A DNA stretch of 43,982 nucleotides, taken from UHGV virus genome UHGV-0179801. One strand, 5' to 3'. Source of the DNA: a virus. Under the pieces are notes generated by a model. That model worked only from the letters and a program-made list of their open reading frames with translations. It was not told the DNA's origin and did no database searches. Positions within the stretch are counted from its first letter, which is position 1, and each line of letters begins with the position of its first letter. This document shows positions 4,794-43,203 of this stretch, piece after piece. The position numbers were made by a program, and so were the translations under genes.

Positions 4794-4822
4794 TTGCACA
4801 CACCAATATAATAGGGTACTAT
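4794..4822 (+). promoter_or_regulatory. sigma70-like promoter TTGCAC-N17-TACTAT with AATAG-N4-CTATT inverted repeat
   Basis: Conserved 25-nt block caccaatataatagggtactattca (4801-4825), near-identical at 6608 and 40231, followed by the conserved leader tcgaaacgaggaga and an ATG. Confidence 0.55.
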
Positions 4823-4850
4823 TCATTACATCGAAACGAGGAGATGAAAA

Positions 4851-5024
4851 ATGTTCAAAGAAAAAGACATAATGCACGAAAACGGCAAATACTGGGTTCT
4901 AAATGATAAAGGAGTGTACTGCGTAATGATTTCCGGGTTTACCCACGCTAAAGCTGATAGTGCATACGCTAGTTTAGATTTAGCGATAGCCCGCTGTGAT
5001 TATCTGGCGAGTAGAGACGCATAA
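4851..5024 (+). CDS. small moron protein (57 aa), hypothetical
   Basis: ATG 4851 after the conserved promoter/leader (gaggagatgaaaaATG); opposite strand to the flanking late genes; followed by a terminator hairpin. Confidence 0.5.
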   Translation: MFKEKDIMHENGKYWVLNDKGVYCVMISGFTHAKADSAYASLDLAIARCDYLASRDA

Positions 5025-5027
5025 ACT

Positions 5028-5050
5028 AAGGCCCCGTAATGGGGCCTTTT
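5028..5050 (+). terminator. rho-independent terminator (AAGGCCCC-gtaat-GGGGCCTT-TT)
   Basis: Perfect 8-bp GC-rich stem, 5-nt loop, T-run; member of a conserved hairpin family recurring at 7183, 30767 and 42010. Confidence 0.6.
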
Positions 5051-6600: not shown

Positions 6601-6629
6601 TTGCAGACACCAATATAATAGGGTACTAT
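6601..6629 (+). promoter_or_regulatory. sigma70-like promoter TTGCAG-N17-TACTAT (conserved family)
   Basis: Same 25-nt block as at 4801 and 40231, followed by the conserved leader tcgaaacgaggagatgagaaATG. Confidence 0.55.
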
Positions 6630-6656
6630 TCAGTTATCGAAACGAGGAGATGAGAA

Positions 6657-7178
6657 ATGGTTACTACAGTAATTACTTTCCCTGCGTATGTAGGGGCGAA
6701 AATCTGCAGGGCGAAAAATGATGTGCGCTATTATTTGAACGCTTTTTACATAGACCCTGAAGGATTGATAGTTTCTACGGATGGTCACAGATTGTTCTGC
6801 GACAACGTGAAGACAAACGTCGAAACTGGAGTTCTAATAGACATCAAAGGGAGGGAGCCTTCTAAATTTAACTACGCGGAGGTAGACCACGACAACGGTA
6901 GTGTTTCTTTCTATGACGATAGTAGTGCGCTTGTATGTACACTTCCTATTGAAGTTGTAGACGGGAGATTTCCTTACTGGAGACGTGTGGCCGGCATTAC
7001 GCCGGGTTCAGTCGATAGCATAGGGTTCTCTCTGCGCTATTTGGCGGACGCGTACAAGATTTCTAAGGCATACAAAAATGAAATTGCCCGTTTCGATTTC
7101 CAGGACCAAACAAACGGATGCAAAATATCATTTTCAAACACTGCATTTATGGTGCTAATGCCAGCGCGATTTAAATAA
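6657..7178 (+). CDS. truncated DnaN-like (beta sliding clamp) protein, 173 aa
   Basis: Matches to recalled E. coli DnaN: NDVRYYLN (DnaN DVRYYLNG), STDGHRL (ATDGHRLA), VVDGRFPYWRRV (LVDGRFPDYRRV), SIGFSLRYLAD (EIGFNVSYVLD), C-terminal AFMVLMPARFK (AYVVMPMRL). Roughly half DnaN length; own promoter and terminator. Confidence 0.7.
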   Translation: MVTTVITFPAYVGAKICRAKNDVRYYLNAFYIDPEGLIVSTDGHRLFCDNVKTNVETGVLIDIKGREPSKFNYAEVDHDNGSVSFYDDSSALVCTLPIEVVDGRFPYWRRVAGITPGSVDSIGFSLRYLADAYKISKAYKNEIARFDFQDQTNGCKISFSNTAFMVLMPARFK

Positions 7179-7182
7179 AACT

Positions 7183-7208
7183 AAGGCCCCGAAAGGGGCC
7201 TTTTCTTT
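7183..7208 (+). terminator. rho-independent terminator (AAGGCCCC-gaaa-GGGGCCTT-TTCTTT)
   Basis: 8-bp stem, GAAA loop, T-run, directly after the stop at 7176-7178; same hairpin family as 5028. Confidence 0.6.
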
Positions 7209-8679
7209 ACTCCTGTTGCTGCTGCGCCGACTGCGGAATCTCTCCTGCTACCTGAGTAACAGCACCCAATGGCAACGGTGCATCTTCGATAGCGTTCTGA
7301 ATATCCTCGTCGGTCCAGTCGGTCACACCTGCCTTACGCAACGCCGCATAGTAAGCGGTAGCCGGTAGCAGGCCCGCGTTAATGTCCGCCATCCACTGAG
7401 CGCGGTCCTGGGCGGTCATCGGTTGCAGGAAGAACTCCATATTCAGTTTGAACTCAATCTCTGTGCCTTCACGCAGCCCAAGCATCGCCGCTACCCAGCG
7501 CAACGCATCTGTATACGCCATGCTTACATTACGTGCGATTGTCGCCATGACGGACGTATCCGCACCACGTTGCAGGCGGGCTGATTCGGCGGTGATTTGC
7601 TGCGTCGGGGTGATAAGCTGTGCGCCAATCTGAATTGCCTGATTCTCTTTATCCAGCATGTTCTGTTTGGCGAGGTTGTTCTCTCCCGCCTGAACCAGAA
7701 ACGCATTGCCGCCGTAGCCGATGTTATGGCCTGAACGAGACCCCATGCGCACGCCGTGTGGGTTAGCTTCTTTCCACTGTTCCATGCTCATGTTCTCACC
7801 TGGCGCAATGAACAGAGTGGGCTGGCCTACAACGAAGCTGGACTCCTCATTGTCCGCGCTGTTGCGGAAATGTCCGATATTAAGCTCAGCCAACGGCAGC
7901 AAAGGTGCATCATCAATGGTTGCGTCGTTGTTGCTCGCCCCAATGAACGTGAACGGTATTTTACCGCGCAGCTGTTCTCCGAGTTCCGGGAAGATTTCGA
8001 TTACGTCACCCTGAGCACCACCTTCGGCGTCGAAGCGGTAAATGCGCTGGCGGTAGCGCCCGTCAATCAAATCGAGAACGCGGTATTGTTCGCCGAATTT
8101 TGTTTCGAACTCCGCGCCCGGTTCTGAGTATTCCCACACCTCACGCAGCACGACCGTTGTCACACGGTTAACAGAACCGATGCGTGTCAGTCGCCAGTTG
8201 ATGATGTTCTCTGCGGTATAGAATGCGATTACCGGGTTTAATAACCCCGCGTTCTGCTCTGCCGCCGTTGCCGCGGCTGTCTCTGGGGCGTCCACCAGCA
8301 ACCCGCCGCGGCCAACCGAGTCAATCTCCATCAGCGTGTCCTGCGCGTGCTGCCACAACCCGACACCAGAACCGTCGGCATTACGTAACAGGTACTCCAG
8401 TTCAGGCGGGATAATTTGCTCGGGGTCTTTACGCATCACTGACCCCACCATCCCGGCCAGAGTACGTTTGGTGAAGTTGTAGCAGATAGCGCCGTTCTCG
8501 TATTCTTCCTGGCGCTGCGCAGCGTAGGTAGGCTCCGGCTCGTTCTTCCCGACGTTGCGAAGATAGCGGATAAGGTCGCCTTCCAGCGCGTGGCGTACCT
8601 TCTGCCATTTATCGAAGTGATGCAGCCATTCCCGGTGTTTTGTTTTAACACCCTGATTCTGACCGTTCATAGTTAACAT
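7207..8679 (-). CDS. portal protein
   Basis: 490-aa ORF immediately downstream of the large terminase gene; AGAGGA RBS; size and position typical of a portal. Confidence 0.7.
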   Translation of the reverse strand: MLTMNGQNQGVKTKHREWLHHFDKWQKVRHALEGDLIRYLRNVGKNEPEPTYAAQRQEEYENGAICYNFTKRTLAGMVGSVMRKDPEQIIPPELEYLLRNADGSGVGLWQHAQDTLMEIDSVGRGGLLVDAPETAAATAAEQNAGLLNPVIAFYTAENIINWRLTRIGSVNRVTTVVLREVWEYSEPGAEFETKFGEQYRVLDLIDGRYRQRIYRFDAEGGAQGDVIEIFPELGEQLRGKIPFTFIGASNNDATIDDAPLLPLAELNIGHFRNSADNEESSFVVGQPTLFIAPGENMSMEQWKEANPHGVRMGSRSGHNIGYGGNAFLVQAGENNLAKQNMLDKENQAIQIGAQLITPTQQITAESARLQRGADTSVMATIARNVSMAYTDALRWVAAMLGLREGTEIEFKLNMEFFLQPMTAQDRAQWMADINAGLLPATAYYAALRKAGVTDWTDEDIQNAIEDAPLPLGAVTQVAGEIPQSAQQQQE

Positions 8680-15995: not shown

Positions 15996-16417
15996 TCGTG
16001 TTCACACTCGCTGGATTTAGTCACGCCGCAATTAATACATACGGCGTGAGCCTTGCCGTTAACAAATCGCCAGTTATGGTGACATTCCTGCGTATCCTCT
16101 TTACGGCAACCAGATTGCTCCGGCAGTACCGGCGTCGGGATACACCGACAATTTACCGTTGCCCCGGGCACGTGTTCGCCCACCACGTAGCGCTGACCCG
16201 CGGGAATGTATCCACCCTTGCGGATAAATTTATATGCCTCAACGTCCCCGTTCATTAACGTTATTGTCCCCATCAACTCGTCCACCAGCTCCGACATATC
16301 ACGTAGCTGATTCTTAAGTGACTGCACCTCCTGCGCCAGGTCTTCGCACTGGTTGTTATTTACCTGCTGCCGTAGCTGGTCAATCAGGTACTCGAATACT
16401 TCGTTTTTGTTACTCAT
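15935..16417 (-). CDS. coiled-coil plus Cys-rich zinc-ribbon protein (160 aa)
   Basis: ATG 16417 with conserved leader AAACGAGAGGAGAGACAGAAG; C-terminal CxxC pairs (CINCG, CKKCG) and CRC/CHH motifs. Confidence 0.5.
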   Translation of the reverse strand: MSNKNEVFEYLIDQLRQQVNNNQCEDLAQEVQSLKNQLRDMSELVDELMGTITLMNGDVEAYKFIRKGGYIPAGQRYVVGEHVPGATVNCRCIPTPVLPEQSGCRKEDTQECHHNWRFVNGKAHAVCINCGVTKSSECEHDWYFYDIGTSMMCKKCGLKK

Positions 16418-16436
16418 CTTCTGTCTCTCCTCTCGT

Positions 16437-16709
16437 TTACTCAACAGCACCTGTTATTGCTATAAGCCCAGTTTTACCCCGGCGGCGGTACTTACGAATC
16501 ACCGTTTTAAGTTCGTCATTACTACTCTGATGCCCAAAAGTGATCGGCAACTCTTCCCCACCTGTCATACCAAACTCGGTGTCTGTCGGTTTGTTCCGCC
16601 ACCCCTGAATAAAACCGAAACGGTCGCGAGTTATATACCGGTAGTTGTTAGGGAGGGGCAATTCCAGCCCCTCAAAATCAACGGTAACGGTGTAGCTGCT
16701 AAAATTCAT
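16437..16709 (-). CDS. hypothetical protein (90 aa)
   Basis: Track ORF 16437..16715 (TTG); ATG at 16709 used. Confidence 0.45.
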   Translation of the reverse strand: MNFSSYTVTVDFEGLELPLPNNYRYITRDRFGFIQGWRNKPTDTEFGMTGGEELPITFGHQSSNDELKTVIRKYRRRGKTGLIAITGAVE

Positions 16710-16848
16710 AGTCAATTACCCCGAACTCGTTGATGATTTGCGCCTTGTAGAAGTTGCCGTTTGAGGCCAGGTGATACGCCTGCGCCATAGTCATCTCGCG
16801 ATAAGTTGCGGTGCTATTTTCAAACTCCATAACCATCAAAGTAACCAT
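16699..16848 (-). CDS. small hypothetical protein (49 aa)
   Basis: Not in track; ATG 16848 with the same conserved leader AAACGAGAGGAGAGACAGAAG, directly downstream of a promoter. Confidence 0.35.
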   Translation of the reverse strand: MVTLMVMEFENSTATYREMTMAQAYHLASNGNFYKAQIINEFGVIDYEF

Positions 16849-16879
16849 CTTCTGTCTCTCCTCTCGTTTGTGCAAATGA

Positions 16880-16908
16880 ATAGTAACCTATTCTATCCCA
16901 GTGAGCAA
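16880..16908 (-). promoter_or_regulatory. sigma70-like promoter TTGCTC-N17-TACTAT (minus strand) with AATAG-N4-CTATT repeat
   Basis: Minus-sense reads TTGCTC-17 nt-TACTAT then the conserved leader and an ATG; inverted repeat at 16879-16892. Confidence 0.5.
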
Positions 16909-16979
16909 GTAAATTTTATTGGTGTTTTAAAGATAATCGTTCGCTACTAATCCAGTAGTACCTCGGGCGTCGCGCCCAC

Positions 16980-17240
16980 TTACGCACCAACCACCCCACA
17001 AAAAGAAACGCCTGGTTTAAGTTTCAGGTTACGTACAACCACCATCTCTACTGAATGGATTGATTCATACCTCGAGTGTCCTCTTCCGTGGCCAAGTTTA
17101 ACCATGCCGCCAGCGACTTCGGTTACTAGCCTCTTCCTCCCGTTGACCAGGACGACATCACTCGGGCGCACATCAGGATGTTTAAGTCTAGCCAGTCTCT
17201 CTTCATATCTGCTCATTGCTGCATCTCCTGCAATAGTCAC
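16980..17240 (-). CDS. hypothetical protein (86 aa)
   Basis: Track ORF; GGAG RBS upstream. Confidence 0.4.
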   Translation of the reverse strand: MTIAGDAAMSRYEERLARLKHPDVRPSDVVLVNGRKRLVTEVAGGMVKLGHGRGHSRYESIHSVEMVVVRNLKLKPGVSFCGVVGA

Positions 17241-17267
17241 TTCGATTGTTGCGTTTGGTGAAATAGA

Positions 17268-17307
17268 ACAAAAATGAGAAAAATGGTACGCTGCTGTGTA
17301 GCAGCGT
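17268..17307 (-). terminator. hairpin plus U-tract (minus strand), terminator or attenuator
   Basis: ACGCTGCT/AGCAGCGT 8-bp stem with 4-nt loop, followed on the minus strand by ACCATTTTTCTCATTTTTG. Confidence 0.45.
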
Positions 17308-17330
17308 AAGTCACAAAGCCAAATAGTAAC

Positions 17331-17492
17331 CTATTGACCTATTACACCACCTGTTACACCAGCGCGAAATTGCACACCAGCTTTCCACGCCCGCCACGCG
17401 AGACGCGTCTTAACGTTCAGGTACTCTTTCTTCGAACCTTTGTTAACCGGCAGACCCTCTACGACGGCCCACCGTTCAAATGCTTCTCTCAT
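17331..17492 (-). CDS. small hypothetical protein (53 aa)
   Basis: Not in track; ATG 17492 overlaps the stop of the upstream ORF (ATGA). Confidence 0.3.
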   Translation of the reverse strand: MREAFERWAVVEGLPVNKGSKKEYLNVKTRLAWRAWKAGVQFRAGVTGGVIGQ

Positions 17493-17713
17493 AACTTAAC
17501 CCCATGGTGTTTAAGGAAACTGGTTAACTTGTACTCCCGGTACTGCGCTACCGCCTTAGCGTGAGCCAAATGCCACGACTTCCAGGGTGTGTATTTCGCC
17601 TTTTCCCAGCATTCAACACCAAACTCAGCGGCCCGCAGACCACCAACAAGACGGCGTAAGCGGAATTCGTTATACGGACTCACACCAACCCCCACAACGC
17701 GTGCATCACACAA
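17489..17713 (-). CDS. hypothetical protein (74 aa)
   Basis: Track ORF (TTG start). Confidence 0.4.
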   Translation of the reverse strand: MCDARVVGVGVSPYNEFRLRRLVGGLRAAEFGVECWEKAKYTPWKSWHLAHAKAVAQYREYKLTSFLKHHGVKL

Positions 17714-17804
17714 ACGGCGATGACAATTAAAATAAACAGGTAATTATTCACGGCAACCTCCCTCAGAGTCGTCGGCACTGGCATCATGATTCGACGCCGT
17801 GGTT

Positions 17805-18023
17805 TTATTTAAAGTAGATAGCGAATTTCTTGTAACCCGCAGGCTCGTTACGAAGCCCTTTACCATTAGCGAAACGTTGTACGTTGTTAAAATCATTTTC
17901 ATCCATTCCGTCGGTGTCGAACGTAAAGAAGTTGCGTTTGTTCCTGATAATTACGCGCTCTGAAATATCGATACCGTAAACTTCTTTGATTGCTGAAACT
18001 ACGCTTGCAGTCGCTTTGTTCAT
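17805..18023 (-). CDS. hypothetical protein (72 aa), first gene of the leftward block
   Basis: ATG 18023 with AAGGAA RBS, about 35 nt downstream of the conserved promoter. Confidence 0.5.
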   Translation of the reverse strand: MNKATASVVSAIKEVYGIDISERVIIRNKRNFFTFDTDGMDENDFNNVQRFANGKGLRNEPAGYKKFAIYFK

Positions 18024-18056
18024 CTTTAAATTCCTTATGTCTCGTTGCTATAAGTG

Positions 18057-18086
18057 AATAGTATCCTATTATATTGGTGTGTGCAA
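18057..18086 (-). promoter_or_regulatory. sigma70-like promoter TTGCAC-N17-TACTAT (minus strand)
   Basis: Reverse complement of 18054-18086 is ttgcacacaccaatataataggatactattcac, the same conserved block as at 4794, 6601 and 40223. Confidence 0.55.
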
Positions 18087-18455
18087 GAGAGTAGTTACGC
18101 TGCCGTTGTGATTCTTCAGGTAGGGTTGTGCCTTTATTCTTATTACTTGGTAACTAAAGGGCAGGCCTTAAGCCTGCCCGGTAAGGGTTACATTTTTACG
18201 GTTGCGAATCTACGGCACTTTAATAAAATCAGATACTTAAGAGATATGCCGCCGATGAAAATAGAGCTTGCCCAGGGCAACCGGAGATACTTAGAAAGGA
18301 AAGTTACGATAATTCTTGTGTTCAGTAAACTTTCGCTTAACCCTTTGCTTAACGCACGGTTTAAGCGGTTTTACAAGGTGAACAAGAATCAAAGTAACTA
18401 AGATATAGAAGCACCTTAAACGAAGATTTTCATAATGTCAATAGGTGTGATTATG

Positions 18456-18484
18456 TTTGATTTCCCATTATTCGCAATGTATAC
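18456..18484 (+). promoter_or_regulatory. candidate sigma70 promoter TTGATT-N17-TATACT for the rightward replication operon
   Basis: Hexamers with 17-nt spacing about 35 nt upstream of the first rightward gene, at the end of a ~430-bp non-coding region. Confidence 0.4.
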
Positions 18485-18517
18485 TCGATTTTGTTAACTG
18501 ATAATGAGGGTTTGAGA

Positions 18518-18688
18518 ATGACACAGAATGAAGTAGCCGAGCGTATCGGTGTTACTCGTCGCACGCTGAATAACTGGTTAAAGAGTGGGAAGTTCCCTGA
18601 TTGTTGTATTCGCATTATGGGCCGCCGTCAGCCAGGTACGTTTGACCGGGAGAAAGTGGAAGCGTGGATTAAGGAGAACGTGAAATGA
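18518..18688 (+). CDS. AlpA/excisionase-like HTH DNA-binding protein (56 aa)
   Basis: EVAERIGVTRRTLNNWLKSGKFP resembles the AlpA-type helix-turn-helix; ATG 18518 with GAGGG RBS (track start 18491 is a TTG). Confidence 0.5.
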   Translation: MTQNEVAERIGVTRRTLNNWLKSGKFPDCCIRIMGRRQPGTFDREKVEAWIKENVK

Positions 18689-18918
18689 CCGAGTTTCAGT
18701 CACGGGTATTTACGGCGGTCGTTTCGTTAACGCATAAAAAAGGGTCGTGCAGCGTTATGGACTTGCGCCGTAGTTATTTTAGGTACTATAGTTCCGCCAT
18801 TATTGAAGGGTCGTTACGTGTACTGGTTAAATCTGGTGTCGTGAAAAACGTTGGCGGGAAATATAGTGCCGTTGCCGAAGTTCGCGGAATGACATCTACT
18901 TTAGAAGACCTGGAATAA
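18685..18918 (+). CDS. hypothetical protein (77 aa)
   Basis: Track ORF; ATGA coupling to the upstream gene. Confidence 0.5.
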   Translation: MTEFQSRVFTAVVSLTHKKGSCSVMDLRRSYFRYYSSAIIEGSLRVLVKSGVVKNVGGKYSAVAEVRGMTSTLEDLE

Positions 18919-18976
18919 AAGAAAGCCCCGACGCGGTGAACGCCGAGGCCAAATTACTTGCTGAAGGAATTATAAT

Positions 18977-21244
18977 ATGTCCGATGTAATTTTATCCTAC
19001 TCGTGGTCCCGCCGCAACGCGCGGGCGGAGAAAAAGGATATAAACGTCAGAACCACACACATGGCAACACTGGACGACCTGAAAGAGTTAATCCAGCCGC
19101 TTGATGCCGTGCGTGACGGGATTAACCCGAAGACAGCGCCCGGCTATATCACTGCCGCGTGCGACTCAACGCACAGCACCGTAAAAGACCCGGAAACAGG
19201 TGACTTTAAGCAGGCGCGTAAAGGTTTCTTTTATCGCTGTGACGCGTCTGTAAGCAAATCGTCGCTGGCGTATCTGGACTTCGACAGTGCAACACCGGAA
19301 GAGTATCAGGAAGCGGTGCGCCTGGTTAAGCGCAGCCGCCAGGCTATGTGCCTCTATACCACGGCATCTCATACCGATGAGTCTCCGCGCTTTCGTGTCG
19401 TCATGCCGCTGGCGCGCCCGGTTGAAGGCGGAGACATCATCCGAGTTCGCCACGGATTGCTGGAGCACTTCTTCAAAGGCATGGGCGCGGACCGCAGCGG
19501 GTTTACCTTGTCGCAGCCGATGTACCTGCCGCCGGTTGGTGCTACTGTTATCTGGTCGCGCCGCAACGACCTGATTGACCCGGACGAGTTACTGGAAGGC
19601 ATCCCGGATTACGAGGTGAGCAGCGCATCGGATTACCAGATACCAGAGGAACTGCGCACCGCGTTTACTGACGCGTTCGAGGCACTGGCGTTTGAGTACG
19701 GCGGCATCATGACACCACGCGGCCTTAAGATGCCAGCTACACCGAAACACGCAGAGAACTACAGCGACCCGACGCCGAGGCCAGATGACTTCCTGCTGTG
19801 CTTCCCGCGCGAAGGGTACGAAGCGCCGAACGTAACAATGATTCACGACACCGACATTACAGCAACCGAAGGCATGTTGCCGAAAGAGGTGTGGAAATAC
19901 GCGTGCGATGCGACCGGGCTGCCGTTCAGTGAAGTCGCAGAGGCCATCGGCTGGGGTGCACGAGAATCTGTCTCATGCAGCCTGGACGACCTGGAAGACG
20001 AGGATGACTCAGAGGAGGACGAGCTACCGGAACCGGTAAAGGCTGATTTCGTCGTAGAAGGGTACATGCCGTCGGATTGCATATGGGATATCGTCGGGGA
20101 ATCTGGCACGTACAAATCGTTCTATACTCTGGGGATGATGTACCTTAGCGCCGCCGGATACCGGTTCGCAGGGGCTGATACCCAGCGTTGCCACCATTTC
20201 TATATTGATGGTGAAGGTGGTGCGGCTACACGTACACGTATTGACGCACTCGCCGCTAAATATGGTGAGGAAGGTAAAGATTATGTACACGTCATCGACA
20301 TGGGTGAAGTCGGAAAACTGAAAAGCCTGATTAAGCTGATGCGAGAAACTGCGGGTGACGAGCCAATTGGGATGGTCGCGTTTGATACCCTCAACCAGAC
20401 GCTGGCCCTGACGATTGATAAGTTCGACGAGAACAGTTCGTCAACGGCAATCGGCATGGGTAAAGTTATCGCCATCCTGAAAGAAGTACGCGATGCAACT
20501 AAAGCCGCGGTAGGCGTCGTACACCATACGCCGAAGGGTGGAAAGAAAGCCCGCGGCAGCGGGGCATTGTATGCAGGTGTTGATGTGGAACTGACAATCG
20601 AACGTGCTACCGACCGCCAGATAAACGTATACCACTCGAAATTTAAGCACGGGCCACAACAGAAAACGGTTGGGATGGTGCTCGAGTCGGTACAGTTCCG
20701 TGAAGCGCCGCCGCCGAAAGAGTACCGCGCGGTTGAGTTCATCGGTAACACAGAGGAATATGGAACAATCGTAAACCTAGACTTGCCCGAGCCGCACAAA
20801 GCGCTTGTTCTGATGCCGTGGGGCTTCGAGCCGTTCAAAACTGACGAGGAGAAAGAGCGGGAAGAAGGGCTGACGAAGGAAGGTAAAGAAAACGTACGTA
20901 AAACCGTAGAGAACGTCGTCAACAGTTCGGAGGCCACGATACTGGCAGCGTTTGAACTGGCGGAAGGAACCTACAACGGCAACGAAGGTATCACGGTAGC
21001 CGCAGCTAATAAGCTCGCACAGTCCGACCCCAACGCAAAGGCGTTTAACTCCAAAGAAGCTATAGAACGTGGGAAGATTAAGAAAATGGTTGAGGCTGGA
21101 TATCTTGTTCCGGGGACTGACGAAAACAATCAGATAATCCCAGGCCGTTACAGGCTGAACACCCGAATAACCGATAACAAGATTCCGAAGACAATATACG
21201 AACCGAATGAAATGTTAACAGTGACAGAGGAGGATTTGGAATGA
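18977..21244 (+). CDS. primase/helicase-like replication protein with RecA-family ATPase domain
   Basis: 755 aa; Walker A-like VGESGTYKS, hydrophobic-then-acid MVAFDTLNQ (Walker B-like), GVVHHTPKGG; N-terminal ~350 aa domain of unclear type. Confidence 0.65.
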   Translation: MSDVILSYSWSRRNARAEKKDINVRTTHMATLDDLKELIQPLDAVRDGINPKTAPGYITAACDSTHSTVKDPETGDFKQARKGFFYRCDASVSKSSLAYLDFDSATPEEYQEAVRLVKRSRQAMCLYTTASHTDESPRFRVVMPLARPVEGGDIIRVRHGLLEHFFKGMGADRSGFTLSQPMYLPPVGATVIWSRRNDLIDPDELLEGIPDYEVSSASDYQIPEELRTAFTDAFEALAFEYGGIMTPRGLKMPATPKHAENYSDPTPRPDDFLLCFPREGYEAPNVTMIHDTDITATEGMLPKEVWKYACDATGLPFSEVAEAIGWGARESVSCSLDDLEDEDDSEEDELPEPVKADFVVEGYMPSDCIWDIVGESGTYKSFYTLGMMYLSAAGYRFAGADTQRCHHFYIDGEGGAATRTRIDALAAKYGEEGKDYVHVIDMGEVGKLKSLIKLMRETAGDEPIGMVAFDTLNQTLALTIDKFDENSSSTAIGMGKVIAILKEVRDATKAAVGVVHHTPKGGKKARGSGALYAGVDVELTIERATDRQINVYHSKFKHGPQQKTVGMVLESVQFREAPPPKEYRAVEFIGNTEEYGTIVNLDLPEPHKALVLMPWGFEPFKTDEEKEREEGLTKEGKENVRKTVENVVNSSEATILAAFELAEGTYNGNEGITVAAANKLAQSDPNAKAFNSKEAIERGKIKKMVEAGYLVPGTDENNQIIPGRYRLNTRITDNKIPKTIYEPNEMLTVTEEDLE

Positions 21245-21853: not shown

Positions 21854-21882
21854 TTGACATCATGAATAGTTCGCTATTATAG
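21854..21882 (+). promoter_or_regulatory. sigma70-like promoter TTGACA-N15/17-TATTAT/TTATAG with AATAG-TTCG-CTATT repeat
   Basis: Consensus -35 TTGACA; inverted repeat 21865-21878 overlaps the -10; followed by leader ccaaacgagaggagagacaaaATG. Confidence 0.55.
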
Positions 21883-21913
21883 TTAGCCCATACCAAACGA
21901 GAGGAGAGACAAA

Positions 21914-22063
21914 ATGATTAACAACCGCAAAGCAAAGATTCTGTTAGGCCTTGATATTGCATTTGGGGCTAAAGAAACCGCACGCTATCGCGTAAGCAAC
22001 AATCGTGTGGGCTTCTTCGACAAAGCAACAGGCCAGTTAGTTAAAACCGTTAAGTATAAATAA
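21914..22063 (+). CDS. small early protein (49 aa)
   Basis: Not in track; ATG 21914 with GAGGAGAGAC RBS immediately downstream of the early promoter. Confidence 0.4.
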   Translation: MINNRKAKILLGLDIAFGAKETARYRVSNNRVGFFDKATGQLVKTVKYK

Positions 22064-24417: not shown

Positions 24418-24421
24418 AGTG

Positions 24422-24447
24422 TTGACACCTGAATAGTTAGCTATTAT
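24422..24447 (+). promoter_or_regulatory. sigma70-like promoter TTGACA-N14/17-TATTAT/TATATT with AATAG-TTAG-CTATT repeat
   Basis: gttgacacctgaatagttagctattatattc upstream of the SSB-like gene. Confidence 0.55.
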
Positions 24448-24516
24448 ATTCTAATCACTGGCCGGGCAGCTCCCGGAGTAAACTTTGAAATATAAACTGA
24501 AAAGCGAGAAATCAAG

Positions 24517-25146: not shown

Positions 25147-25165
25147 TATCTGAATCAATTTTACT

Positions 25166-25189
25166 AAGGCCCTTCATTGGGCCTTTTTA
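25166..25189 (+). terminator. rho-independent terminator (AAGGCCC-ttcatt-GGGCCTT-TTT)
   Basis: 7-bp stem and T-run about 20 nt after the SSB-like stop. Confidence 0.55.
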
Positions 25190-27761: not shown

Positions 27762-28067
27762 ATGAGCACGCCTGAGGGCCGCGTACAGAAATACGCAAAG
27801 GAGCGATTCGAGGCCATTGGTGGCCTCGTTAGAAAGCTGTCTTATGAGGGTAGAAACGGAGCGCCTGACCTGCTGGTAGTCCTTCCGGGAGGGGTGATAT
27901 GGTTCGTCGAGGTGAAGAAAGACGAAAACACGGAACCGGAGGCCCATCAGTTGCGGGAACACAAACGGCTTCGTAAACGTGACGCAAATGTTTTTGTAGT
28001 AGGAACAAAAGAAGAGGTTGACACCCTAATAGCGAACTATTATAGTAGCCATACACCAACAATATAA
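27762..28067 (+). CDS. VRR-NUC domain nuclease
   Basis: GAPDLLVVLPGGVIWFVEVKK matches the VRR-NUC PD-(D/E)XK signature; GGGAGGGG RBS. Confidence 0.65.
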   Translation: MSTPEGRVQKYAKERFEAIGGLVRKLSYEGRNGAPDLLVVLPGGVIWFVEVKKDENTEPEAHQLREHKRLRKRDANVFVVGTKEEVDTLIANYYSSHTPTI

Positions 28068-30762: not shown

Positions 30763-30766
30763 AGAA

Positions 30767-30793
30767 AAGGCCCCAAACGGGGCCTTAGTTTTA
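30767..30793. terminator. bidirectional rho-independent terminator (AAGGCCCC-aaac-GGGGCCTT)
   Basis: 8-bp stem; T-rich tracts on both strands (agtttta on plus, ttttctct on minus); sits between the convergent replication operon and the tailspike gene. Confidence 0.6.
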
Positions 30794-30795
30794 TG

Positions 30796-32985
30796 CTAAT
30801 TATTATCCTCCACCACCTCAAGAACGCCATTGTTAGAGCGAAGTCTTTTATATGCATTATCACCTACATCACGAACAATAACACCACCAGATGCATACAC
30901 AGTATTGAATCTACCATCCACACCACCGAGGTTCTGAACATTATCGGCAACAGGCGTCAATACACCAGCAACACGATTAGCTTTACGGGCATACCAGACA
31001 TTCTTGCCAACATCTTTATCCATCGGGGTATCAAAGTTAAAACTGGTGCTGTTAGTGGAGAGTCCTGATTCAGATGCAGATGAAGTATCAACAATTAACT
31101 TGAGTGTTCCGCCAGTAAGCCCATCAGACGCAACATACAATTCTGCATTCTTAAAGTTACTTAACCCACCTAACCCATTAGCAAACGTAACCTTGCTGGC
31201 ATCCCCATAAACAATCAGTCTGTTCTCTTTAAACCTTTCAGCATATAACCCGAACGCCACCCCGTCCTGATCATGGATGTCGATGGTTGCATGAGTAATA
31301 TTAATAGTGGGTGGGATACCAAATGTAATGGTGTTCCCTCTAAACTCTTTAACTTTGAAGTTCAAACGATACTCATTGGCATAGTCATTTGCATACCTGT
31401 TCTGAAATTCACAGTCAATGAAGCTATAGCATTCAAGACCCATAGGAGCTGGTGAGCCGGTATCAATAACGCTGCCTATAATGGTTGTACCTACAAACTT
31501 AATATTGCGCGCATTACCTGCGTTAAATACAGCACCGTCAGAGTGCATACTATGTAGCACACCACCAACAACCGTAATATCGTTAACAGTACCTGGTACG
31601 GATACAGTCTGTAATGCACCCTTACCTGTGTTAACAATTTTAGGGTTAATGATTCTAATGTTGTAAGGGTTGCCTCCTTCAGCCTCAATATCAATACCTG
31701 CTTCTGGACCAGAGAAGTGCGTACCAATGCCTGTTGCCAGACGACCAGATCTGGTAATGATTGGATTGATAATGTCAATGTTTGCACCGCCGGTTAATGA
31801 ATAGCAATTACGCCCACAATCCTGAAACACGCAGGTGTCCACTACTGTATTAGGGATGATGTCAAGAAAACTTCTTTCACCAGTGGCTTGCATATGAAGA
31901 CCATCAACAGCGGAGTTTTTAAAGGTGTGTCGCGCTATCTGAAATCCTTCTGACTGATTCACCCACATGTTATATGCTGGCACTTGATACCCTGTATTGC
32001 CGTACTTCCCACCCCACTGAAGGTTAACAAGGTTTCCATCTGTAGCACCGTTTTTTATTTCCACATTAGGCGCAAGATAAATTTTTATCAGATAACCAGT
32101 TGATGCGAGGTAATTTGCATCAGGAGTCTCAGAAACAACATCGGATGCAGGATTTCCGGTTACAGGGTCGTAAGCGCCTACCCTAAGCCCACTATTTAAT
32201 TTCAAGGTCCATCCCGACATATCCAAAATTATTTTTTGATTTGTTTGCGCGACGGAAAACCACCCCATAGCAGAAGGATCTGACCATGAACGAGATTGAT
32301 AAGATGGCCGGTATGAATACCCCAATCCATATGCACCAGCTAATTGCTGAGAGCCTACGAGACTGACACCTGAAGGAAATACTACGTATAGAGGCTCTGT
32401 GGATGAGGATAAATATTGACCTAGCGCCCAAAGAGCGTCTGCATTGTCGGAAGAATCAGTTTTTACACCAAAATCCTCTGCATAGATGACTCGGATATTT
32501 ATTTTATCCAATGCGGCAGTGACTGTTTCTGCAATTAACGATTTGGGGTTTTTGTACCCTATCAACGACCCGCCGTCAGGGGCCTCCGTAGACGATAATT
32601 GTGATCGTAAATCAGGGTCTGTCTGCGGTTTCCAGTCCGCATTACCAACAGGGTTAAAACCAGCCGGAACCGTAACTGGAAGCGTACCTGCATACGAATA
32701 CCACGTTTTACTTACAGGGTCGTAGACAACTTTGCCTCGGTCGTTAGCCGTGAGAGTGCCTCCGGCGGAAAAGTCCCACGACACAGGCGAAAAGCCAGCG
32801 TCGCGCAACACGGCAGGGAGTGTCTTCTGTGTCTGCCCCGTAACGGCGTTTGTCGCGTAGTCGATATCTGCGCCACCAGCAACACCCCCGGATTTACCTG
32901 TAATAACCTCGGCTTCGAAAATCTGGTGTTTCTTGGCGGTCTGTAAATCCGCCAGGCTTAAAACGTCACCACATCCGCTTGACAT
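30796..32985 (-). CDS. tailspike / tail fibre protein with beta-helix-type repeats (putative depolymerase)
   Basis: 729 aa at the distal end of the tail module; AAAGAGGA RBS; Gly/Asn/Thr-rich repetitive body typical of right-handed beta-helix receptor-binding proteins. Confidence 0.7.
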   Translation of the reverse strand: MSSGCGDVLSLADLQTAKKHQIFEAEVITGKSGGVAGGADIDYATNAVTGQTQKTLPAVLRDAGFSPVSWDFSAGGTLTANDRGKVVYDPVSKTWYSYAGTLPVTVPAGFNPVGNADWKPQTDPDLRSQLSSTEAPDGGSLIGYKNPKSLIAETVTAALDKINIRVIYAEDFGVKTDSSDNADALWALGQYLSSSTEPLYVVFPSGVSLVGSQQLAGAYGLGYSYRPSYQSRSWSDPSAMGWFSVAQTNQKIILDMSGWTLKLNSGLRVGAYDPVTGNPASDVVSETPDANYLASTGYLIKIYLAPNVEIKNGATDGNLVNLQWGGKYGNTGYQVPAYNMWVNQSEGFQIARHTFKNSAVDGLHMQATGERSFLDIIPNTVVDTCVFQDCGRNCYSLTGGANIDIINPIITRSGRLATGIGTHFSGPEAGIDIEAEGGNPYNIRIINPKIVNTGKGALQTVSVPGTVNDITVVGGVLHSMHSDGAVFNAGNARNIKFVGTTIIGSVIDTGSPAPMGLECYSFIDCEFQNRYANDYANEYRLNFKVKEFRGNTITFGIPPTINITHATIDIHDQDGVAFGLYAERFKENRLIVYGDASKVTFANGLGGLSNFKNAELYVASDGLTGGTLKLIVDTSSASESGLSTNSTSFNFDTPMDKDVGKNVWYARKANRVAGVLTPVADNVQNLGGVDGRFNTVYASGGVIVRDVGDNAYKRLRSNNGVLEVVEDNN

Positions 32986-40115: not shown

Positions 40116-40222
40116 TCTTTGATCCTTTGGTTAAGAGGTTACAGGTTAAGGGAAATGCGCCAGACGGGAACCACCCGCTTTTCGTGTGCGACACTAGGCG
40201 CAAACTTATTCTAGCACACTAC

Positions 40223-40251
40223 TTGCACACCCCAATATAATAGGGTACTAT
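40223..40251 (+). promoter_or_regulatory. sigma70-like promoter TTGCAC-N17-TACTAT (conserved family)
   Basis: acttgcacaccccaatataatagggtactattca, the same block as at 4794 and 6601. Confidence 0.55.
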
Positions 40252-40281
40252 TCACTTACACCAACAATGGAGGAGTTTAAA

Positions 40282-42005: not shown

Positions 42006-42009
42006 GAAA

Positions 42010-42036
42010 AAGGCCCCTTTCGGGGCCTTAGTTTTA
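42010..42036. terminator. bidirectional rho-independent terminator (AAGGCCCC-tttc-GGGGCCTT)
   Basis: 8-bp stem with T-tracts on both strands, between the rightward cassette and the convergent major tail gene. Confidence 0.6.
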
Positions 42037-43203
42037 TGCGTAGGTGATGCGCTGGATAACAATAGACGACTGATATTGGTTGCCGGTAGCCTGGCCTTCG
42101 ATGGACTGAGTGATTGACTCTGGTCCGCCAATCTCAGGCGTAACCGCCGTAAGCTCTGCGCGTTTCAAACTGAAAGACATAACCCCGTTTACCCCCGCCA
42201 GAATAGAGTTAATCTCTACCTGCTGTTCATTGATAAACTTCTGAATCATCGCCATGTCGTACAGCTTGCCGGAGATGGAGAAGGTGTTAGCCGCGCGACC
42301 ACGTTCCACGAACGCAACGCTACTGTTCCCTAGTTCAAACTGAGCGGATGCGCCGTTGTCGTTGGTGATGGTCAGAGTATCGCAACGCAACGGCGTAGAA
42401 CCGTCGAACACGGACACATCTACAGAAGAGAACGGCTCGTCAGTGAACGTCACCTGGGAGAAATCAGAGCCAGACGGCGGCGCGGTAAGAATCTCCTGAC
42501 TCAGACCGATGAATGGGAAGCTCCCCGTTACCATCGCGTTAACAGCCTGCTCGATAGTAAAACCGGAGATTTCCACGCCTTTGGTCAACATGTACGCGTC
42601 CGGGTTCCCGCACTGACCTTTGAACCATGTCAGGATGGAGAAAGTCTTACATGCATTACCGGTTTCCAGTTTGTCACCGGTTTTTCCATCGGTCTCAATA
42701 GGGCCTTCGGCGGTAAGGGTGTGCTGAATGCCGGCGCCAGTAACCACAGTAGCTGTTACGGCAGTAACGATGAACGGCTTAGAGTTATCGCCAGTTAAAG
42801 CGTCAAAATACAGAAGGTCCCCGACCTCTACACCGTCAGTAATGAAACTGCCAGTGTTGCGGGTGAAAGTTTTTGCTACCGGGTCTACCGTAATACCAAC
42901 AGCGGATAAGGTTACCCCATCCTGCCACGTAGATGTCATCGCACCAGCAAGGAAATCATCCTGACTACGGGAGCTAAGCTCAATGGCATACTCCCCGCTA
43001 ACCTGTTTGTTACCGGTGCGGATAGATGTAGTTTCACGGCTGCCGTCCAGTTCGTTGGAAGTCAGCGCATCGCGGGTTACAGCGGGAACACCGCCGGTGT
43101 TACGCAACGGCGACCATACCGGGTTACTTGGTGTTACGCCAGGGGTCACTTCCGCCACATAGAATTGCGCGGTATTCGCGCCCTTAAAAGGAGTTGTAGC
43201 CAT
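42034..43203 (-). CDS. major tail protein
   Basis: 389 aa; AAGAGG RBS before ATG 43203; first large gene of the tail block after the neck genes, followed by a strong terminator. Confidence 0.6.
   Translation of the reverse strand: MATTPFKGANTAQFYVAEVTPGVTPSNPVWSPLRNTGGVPAVTRDALTSNELDGSRETTSIRTGNKQVSGEYAIELSSRSQDDFLAGAMTSTWQDGVTLSAVGITVDPVAKTFTRNTGSFITDGVEVGDLLYFDALTGDNSKPFIVTAVTATVVTGAGIQHTLTAEGPIETDGKTGDKLETGNACKTFSILTWFKGQCGNPDAYMLTKGVEISGFTIEQAVNAMVTGSFPFIGLSQEILTAPPSGSDFSQVTFTDEPFSSVDVSVFDGSTPLRCDTLTITNDNGASAQFELGNSSVAFVERGRAANTFSISGKLYDMAMIQKFINEQQVEINSILAGVNGVMSFSLKRAELTAVTPEIGGPESITQSIEGQATGNQYQSSIVIQRITYA

Follow-up and report, generated by a model that had tools for sequence, protein, structure and literature searches.

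A conserved terminator-like hairpin and an orphan copy of a promoter-embedded palindrome in the early region of a Kagunavirus genome

Introduction

In the early region of the virus genome UHGV-0179801, a palindromic motif carrying a −10-like hexamer stands closely ahead of a terminator-like hairpin, which raises the question of whether transcription starts, stops or is regulated at this point. The window analyzed here is the whole stretch of 43,982 nucleotides, and the initial annotation had offered two answers for the locus: either the hairpin ends the transcript of the small genes upstream and the motif is purely an operator, or the pair represents promoter-proximal attenuation. BLAST comparison places the window in the genus Kagunavirus (Guernseyvirinae), as an Escherichia coli siphovirus with about 90% identity to many Escherichia phages, and with the Salmonella phages of the genus Jerseyvirus as more distant kin. 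We found one RNA-seq paper on a Kagunavirus, a time course of vB_Eco_K1B4, which has gene-level resolution and names one early gene (PMC12645636), and in the literature we found no 5′/3′ end mapping for Guernseyvirinae phages.

Results

Layout of the early region

Read along the minus strand, the locus consists of the 3′ end of a 53-aa open reading frame (ORF), two 12-nt tandem units, the box, a 13-nt spacer, the hairpin, its tail, a leader and a 78-aa ORF. The features are as follows.

17331–17492, minus strand: 53-aa ORF, the last gene ahead of the hairpin, with its stop codon TAG at 17333–17331
17337–17360, minus strand: two tandem 12-nt units, GGTGTAACAGGT and GGTGTAATAGGT, directly 5′ of the box
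17335–17322, minus strand: orphan box AATAGGTTACTATT, that is AATAG-GTTA-CTATT, with TACTAT at 17328–17323
17287–17308, minus strand: stem-loop TACGCTGCT-ACAC-AGCAGCGTA, with a stem of 9 bp (5 of them G-C) and a loop of 4 nt
17307–17300, minus strand: 5′ arm of the hairpin, ACGCTGCT
17299–17296, minus strand: loop, ACAC
17295–17288, minus strand: 3′ arm of the hairpin, AGCAGCGT
17261–17286, minus strand: tail, made up of CCA, TTTTT (17283–17279), CTCA, TTTTT (17274–17270) and GTTCTATTT
17217–17260, minus strand: leader of the downstream cassette gene (about 45 nt), conserved while the genes on either side vary
16980–17216, minus strand: 78-aa cassette ORF, which separates the hairpin block from the next promoter

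Reading of the sequence bears out the box with its TACTAT −10 hexamer at 17335–17322 on the minus strand, as well as the hairpin and U-rich tract that had been described within about 15 nt of it. The gap between box and hairpin is 13 nt, and the 8-bp arms are brought to a 9-bp stem by an extra pair, T17308-A17287. The 53-aa ORF ends within the box, its stop codon being 22 nt from the stem (17308), and the hairpin is on the minus strand like all neighboring genes.

The 53-aa ORF matches phrog_15836 over residues 1 to 43 of the 47-residue profile, and its approximately 10 C-terminal residues are encoded by the GGTGTAACAGGT repeats, a unit that is present in two copies in the window versus one to four or more in relatives (e.g., L027 and L054). 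Escherichia phage 26 has a DUF551-type gene of about 200 bp that separates the 47-aa phrog_15836 gene from the hairpin. This gene is missing from the window, and its absence (about 17361–17375 on the minus strand, versus 750–960 in L001) leaves the small ORF fused with the repeats.

For the gene downstream of the hairpin, a GTG start at 17240 had been proposed; we consider ATG at 17216 more likely, given the Shine-Dalgarno (SD) sequence AGGAG at 17229–17225 on the minus strand and the annotation of this start in relatives. Overlapping the cassette gene's start codon is a conserved mini-ORF, ATG-CAG-CAA-TGA (17224–17213, minus strand), that reads ATG CAA CAA TGA in relatives. The 78-aa product gave no tblastn match among 50,697 phage records and matched no Pfam or PHROG family; its homologues fall into 15 metagenomic protein clusters (61 to 94% identity) and occupy the same position in related contigs of about 43 kb. 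The gene appears to have no convincing promoter of its own. A pair in its leader, TTCACC (17262–17257)-N18-GACTAT (17238–17233), is at best weakly promoter-like from its letters (7/12 consensus positions) and would put the transcription start within the SD sequence.

Pfam and PHROGs searches of ten neighboring small proteins returned a single regulator, an HTH_17 protein encoded at 18491–18688. Elsewhere in the window, an identical 24-nt ribosome-binding cassette, AAACGAGAGGAGAGACAGAAGATG, precedes several early genes (16415–16438 and 16846–16869, before minus-strand genes, and 21894–21914 on the plus strand), and a related leader, CGAAACGAGGAGATGA, lies downstream of class-A promoters (described below) at 4830 and 6636. 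Two strong terminator-like hairpins on the minus strand (18159–18179 and 18924–18950), within or beside the divergent control region and the early genes that read rightward, are antisense to the operon of the HTH and primase-helicase genes and may insulate the leftward early promoter against read-in.

The box family is embedded in sigma-70-type promoters

The pattern AATAG-N4-CTATT is strongly overrepresented, with nine exact copies in the window versus 0.03 expected (none of 100 shuffles reaches nine) and five exact copies in the Jerseyvirus SETP7 versus 0.05 expected. Eight of the nine boxes in the window are embedded in sigma-70-type promoters of two architectures, the exception being the copy at 17322. 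Class A has the form cTTGCAC-N10-AATAGGnTACTATTCA, with a −35 element TTGCAC, a 17-nt spacer and a −10 element TACTAT, and its box spans −19 to −6; in Jerseyvirus the class-A −35 element is TTGACG at unchanged spacing. Class B has the form TTGACA-N4/5-AATAGnnnnCTATT-ATAGT, and in it the box occupies −25 to −12. The sites are as follows.

4810 (4794–4825), 6617 (6601–6632) and 40239 (40222–40253), plus strand: class A
18057 (18086–18055) and, weaker, 16879 (16908–16877), minus strand: class A
21865 (21854–21883), 24432 (24421–24450) and 28028 (28017–28046), plus strand: class B
18058–18086, minus strand: early class-A promoter, TTGCAC (18086–18081)-N17-TACTAT (18063–18058), with its box at 18070–18057
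16880–16908, minus strand: next class-A promoter, TTGCTC (16908–16903)-N17-TACTAT (16885–16880), with its box at 16892–16879 and a score of 53.7 bits

The promoter at 18086–18058 is the nearest upstream one feeding the hairpin; it has the top score of the window (66.5 bits) and is part of the repeat pairs I1, I2 and I4. The 14-mer at 16892–16879 is identical to the orphan box at 17335–17322. Within about 15 nt of the class-B promoter at 24432 there is a hairpin, GGCCGGG-CAGCT-CCCGG (about 24446–24485, plus strand), which has no U-tract, is conserved in Jerseyvirus and could be a 5′ stem-loop on the class-B transcript.

Boxes of this family have previously been published as predicted promoters. 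The PHIRE "phage promoter" consensus of fBC-Eco01 is tgAATAGTa-ccTATTat-T (PMC9825357), and the same motif is found in Table S4 of the Golestan paper (PMC7203180). The PHIRE promoters of Kagunavirus share the 14-bp box seen here, AATAGGnTACTATT, or its reverse complement, and the published copies are promoter embedded; the orphan box differs from them in having neither the −35 element nor the flanks, and the copy ahead of the hairpin is missing from the lists even though it is present in the Golestan genome (L016). The fBC-Eco01 paper ascribes the box sites to a phage RNA polymerase (PMC9825357). The PHIRE sites show sigma-70 geometry, TTGCAC/TTGACG-N17-TACTAT, and no RNA polymerase gene is annotated in SETP7.

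With respect to the promoter downstream of the hairpin, we observed the exact box in 38 of 43 relatives and an intact left arm, AATAG, in 42 of 43, in a sample that was anchored on synteny and not on the box. This arm sits in the promoter spacer. Because the register of the palindrome differs between the two classes and the left arm is conserved, the sequences suggest that the palindrome is a separable, putative protein-binding site, recognized by a regulator shared by both promoter classes.

The copy at 17322 lacks the rest of the promoter

With a promoter weight matrix of 48 columns, derived from relatives (49 distinct class-A sites), the true class-A promoters of the window, five in number, reach +47 to +66 bits, and the site at 17322 is given −60 bits. 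The 14-nt core of this site contributes +23 bits and its downstream part −22 bits, and the upstream part, at −62 bits, falls below the background of −41 ± 12. The class-A −10 hexamer TACTAT is present at 17328–17323, and at 17-nt spacing from it the −35 position reads GGTGGT; over spacings of 15 to 19 nt the best match to TTGACA is 2/6. There is no TG of an extended −10 element, and a scan for sigma-70-like sites made no call on either strand at 17322. The class-A downstream leader, with an SD sequence and a start codon about 25 to 35 nt after the −10 element, is also absent here, the hairpin beginning 14 nt after the −10 hexamer. On the basis of the inspection of the −35 region, the scan and the matrix, we rejected a promoter at 17322. 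A plus-strand promoter with TTGACC (17335–17340), abutting the box, was likewise rejected, having no −10 element at 15- to 18-nt spacing.

Without a −35 element and conserved promoter flanks, the box at 17322 is not expected to initiate transcription, and its juxtaposition with the hairpin becomes ordinary, since a stray copy lacks the remainder of the promoter. As an inverted repeat it has the makings of an operator, with arms AATAG and CTATT around a variable 4-nt center, as at the nine sites of the window and the five of SETP7; judged by the weight matrix, it does not overlap a core promoter.

Anatomy of the hairpin and its tail

The hairpin folds with −13.9 kcal/mol (z = −5.3; none of 200 shuffles folds as well) and is present in both the minimum-free-energy and the centroid structures of 61-, 91-, 121- and 231-nt folds. 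Its stem and loop fall within the range of intrinsic terminators (stem of about 5 to 14 bp, loop of 3 to 8 nt, G+C-rich), and, following a gene in the direction of transcription, it is also placed as a terminator would be. The U-tract of an intrinsic terminator follows the stem after 0 to 2 nt. Here, the U-run starts 3 nt past the stem (CCA-UUUUU-CUCA-UUUUU), with five U's in the first 8 nt, and the plus strand shows no T-run after the hairpin.

Because its U-tract begins 3 nt beyond the stem, the hairpin has a weak tail score (TransTermHP-style): −2.24 in the window versus a background mean of −2.07, compared with −3.37 in most Kagunavirus relatives (TCATTTTT) and −2.5 to −5.9 for the GGCCCC-type terminators of the window. 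The latter are near-identical GGCCCC-loop-GGGGCC hairpins at 5023–5049, 7178–7212, 25161–25187, 30765–30796 and 42008–42039, with T-runs on one or both sides; these GGCCCC-loop-GGGGCC(-TTTT) structures are the canonical, partly bidirectional terminators of the phage and are of another type than the hairpin at 17300. A simple terminator scan does list the hairpin at 17300, and the scan as a whole is unenriched (14 found versus 15.0 expected from shuffles), so that the reality of the hairpin rests on conservation and not on the scan.

The likeness to the intrinsic terminators of Enterobacteria and their phages thus includes a stable 9-bp stem, a 4-nt loop and a U-rich tract, located between transcription units on the coding strand and closely behind a stop codon. 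The differences are the U-run 3 nt off the stem, the proximal tail CCA with its near-background score and the loss of the U-tract in a fifth of the relatives. From its sequence, the hairpin would work like an ordinary intrinsic terminator with a suboptimal tail. It appears to be absent from the ARNold terminator lists of Golestan and fBC-Eco01, as far as a search of the supplementary text for the stem string can tell, and the Shelanagig record has ribosome-binding sites annotated around the hairpin and no terminator.

Promoter-proximal attenuation

A −10-like element closely before a terminator-like hairpin is also what is seen at lambda PR′-tR′, where Q acts, and in leader attenuators. By analogy, TACTAT (17328–17323) would fire as a −10-only promoter, and a transcript of about 45 nt would halt at the hairpin, in the manner of PR′-tR′, except when some factor allows RNA polymerase to pass. 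The hexamer is indeed that of class A, a G at −14 is common to the 17322 site and the class-A promoters, and the class-B promoter at 24432 has a hairpin at a similarly short distance. A regulated attenuator requires, in addition to a promoter and a leader, either competing folds or an antiterminator loading site. The locus, which belongs to an early operon, differs from the lambda and leader systems in that it lacks a −35 element or other promoter context, an alternative structure and a known antiterminator and leaves no space for a leader. Besides the missing −35 and extended −10 elements and the profile score, what counts against attenuation is that the site falls inside the 3′ end of an ORF, that only about 6 to 8 nt would separate the start from the hairpin and that in most relatives no −10-like sequence precedes the hairpin.

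In the search for an antiterminator fold, the 61- to 231-nt contexts yielded none, the only additional structure being a weak, noncompeting hairpin that directly adjoins the stem. Rfam, searched permissively over 16000–19000 (E ≤ 1), gave no match and hence no leader or attenuator family. The attenuation proposed in the initial annotation is for these reasons very improbable, and its other reading, in which the hairpin ends the upstream transcript and the motif does not fire, is the better supported with respect to these two parts (no −35 element, −60 bits and a hairpin that is conserved where the box is missing).

The stem is invariant across two genera

We compared 62 distinct haplotypes of the region from Kagunavirus and Jerseyvirus, comprising phages found by BLAST in GenBank, IMG/VR contigs and metagenome contigs with the same downstream gene. 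The IMG/VR contigs were retrieved either by the hairpin pattern or by a downstream-leader anchor that is independent of the hairpin; for the stem survey, 11 loci came from BLAST and about 50 from the downstream anchor, without reference to the stem sequence. All 62 haplotypes, from both genera, share one and the same stem, ACGCTGCT/AGCAGCGT, and a degenerate anchor search of IMG/VR found no Guernseyvirinae locus with an altered stem among the matches listed. The loop varies, with ACAC in 43 haplotypes, GAGT in 16, ACTC in 2 and GTGT in 1. The rare loops ACTC (L008 and L049) and GTGT (L060) are the reverse complements of the common GAGT and ACAC, on an unchanged stem; the loop is thus seen in both orientations, which indicates that the palindrome was flipped in some lineages. 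There are no compensatory stem changes in the 62 haplotypes, so that selection at the RNA level and at the DNA level are indistinguishable.

Downstream of the stem, 48 of the 62 haplotypes, including the window, carry a T-type sequence (A[C/T]CATTTTT...TTTTT), which reads CCAUUUUU in the window and commonly UCAUUUUU in Kagunavirus. Its two U5 runs are retained in both genera although the intervening bases differ. In the other, S-type sequence (14/62), the U-tract is replaced by ACAACTTTAACTTA and a second hairpin, GTGTCG-N8-CGACAC-TTTCA, with only three U's after it. S-type relatives are found in both genera (L011, L014, L017, L024, L028, L037, L048, L060, L062, L064, L065 and L154 to L158). 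They keep the first hairpin without the U-tract, which indicates that it is conserved even where classical termination looks poor.

Upstream of the stem, the 29-nt spacer has two main forms of equal length, as well as hybrids: V1, CAATAGTTTGGGATTTTACTGAGTGACTT, is the majority form, to which all Jerseyvirus are similar, and V2, CAATAGGTTACTATTTGGCTTTGTGACTT, is the form of the window. The exact box is found at this position in 12 of the 62 haplotypes and in no Jerseyvirus, and three further haplotypes (L043, L054 and L062) have a decayed box (CTACT; AAAAG..CTAAT). V1 already fits 8 of the 10 arm positions, and therefore few changes were needed to make a box.

The V1/V2 and T/S forms and the genes on either side assort independently of one another. 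At least eight different downstream gene starts are found, and the upstream genes vary too; 15 haplotypes are gene-less, with ATA in place of the start codon and the next class-A promoter at +130. In every relative, the hairpin lies between class-A promoters of the same strand, one upstream (−414 to −1595) and one downstream (+130 to +643).

Roles other than termination

This pattern of conservation raises the question of whether the hairpin is kept chiefly for something other than termination, such as the stability or processing of mRNA (at a 3′ or 5′ end), service as a DNA linker for cassette exchange, or binding of a protein to the palindrome. The invariant stem without covariation, around a 4-nt center that varies and is even inverted (ACAC/GTGT and GAGT/ACTC), would fit such a role. 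So would the retention of the hairpin in the S-type haplotypes and the independent assortment of its surroundings, which looks as if crossovers had occurred within invariant blocks. There is a precedent in the promoter/stem-loop (PeSL) cassettes of T4-like phages that mediate shuffling (PMC2839356, PMC4122927). On the other hand, the hairpin is single-copy in the genome, conservation is high over the whole block of about 130 nt and not over the stem alone, and the U-rich tract conserved in the T-type haplotypes is found in the orientation of transcription only. Moreover, these roles are compatible with termination. As the chief reason for conservation we regard them as unlikely, while giving them some weight.

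PeSLs are multicopy and have a strong sigma-70 promoter with a stem-loop inside or beside it (PMC2839356, PMC4122927). The present locus resembles them as an early-region conserved block with a stem-loop, an SD sequence and a start codon that is flanked by variable ORFans, and the junctions of indels and swaps lie inside the conserved block here as they do in PeSLs. It differs in that the hairpin block has no convincing promoter and occurs once in the window, where the only repeats are the class-A promoter, the ribosome-binding cassettes and the GGCCCC terminators. We rejected membership in the PeSL group on the grounds of this single copy.

The orphan box as an operator

In one of its two readings, the initial annotation had taken the motif to be purely an operator. 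For the copy ahead of the hairpin, this would mean that the putative dimeric protein of the promoter boxes also binds 17335–17322, as a roadblock or auxiliary site that tunes transcription at the hairpin. The exact arms at 17322, the same as in the box at 16892–16879, are consistent with this, as are the overrepresentation of the box in both genera and the intact left arm at nearly all synteny-anchored promoter sites. The two registers of the palindrome relative to the −10 element fit a protein site better than a contact of RNA polymerase. The first base of the spacer may be G, T or C in the haplotypes that carry the box, the arms usually being kept, and the early HTH_17 protein is encoded nearby.

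Against a working operator, the box has no known binding protein, is missing from this position in about 80% of the haplotypes, all Jerseyvirus among them, and has decayed in the three haplotypes named above, while the common haplotype was only a few changes away from it. The spacing to neighboring boxes is not conserved, which makes looping unlikely; DNA looping between boxes was rejected as a candidate, the distances varying widely among relatives. An operator function at 17322 is on balance doubtful. We consider it improbable, too, that box and hairpin form a protein-controlled termination switch into the ORFan cassette, with a putative factor 13 bp before the hairpin, or that the hairpin is a dedicated recombination linker by which early cassettes, spacer variants and tails can assort independently across the Guernseyvirinae.

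Discussion

The reading that we favor, with moderate confidence, is that the hairpin is a conserved, partial Rho-independent terminator that closes the first leftward early unit and that the box ahead of it is a promoter-incompetent orphan. A terminator is favored by form and orientation and by a location between promoters that directly follows a stop codon. RNA polymerase would start at the early promoter (18086–18058) and transcribe three small ORFs, the last of them at 17492–17331. A fraction of the polymerases would stop at the hairpin and U-tract (17308–17261), and the others would read through into the cassette gene (17216–16980) and then meet the promoter at 16908–16880. Termination would thus be partial and the box functionally silent. 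A short patch substitution (GGG to ACT, with neighboring changes) in an already similar spacer is the probable origin of the orphan box itself.

The finding matters little in itself, and it refines the transcription map of therapeutic coliphages and of Salmonella phages by marking the probable end of the first early unit. Also documented is the shuffling of early ORFan cassettes around an invariant hairpin. For annotation, the PHIRE "phage promoter" repeat is a palindrome embedded in sigma-70-type promoters, and bare copies of it do not warrant annotation as promoters. Should the box turn out to serve a global phage regulator as its operator, the orphan copy would offer a handy natural test site.
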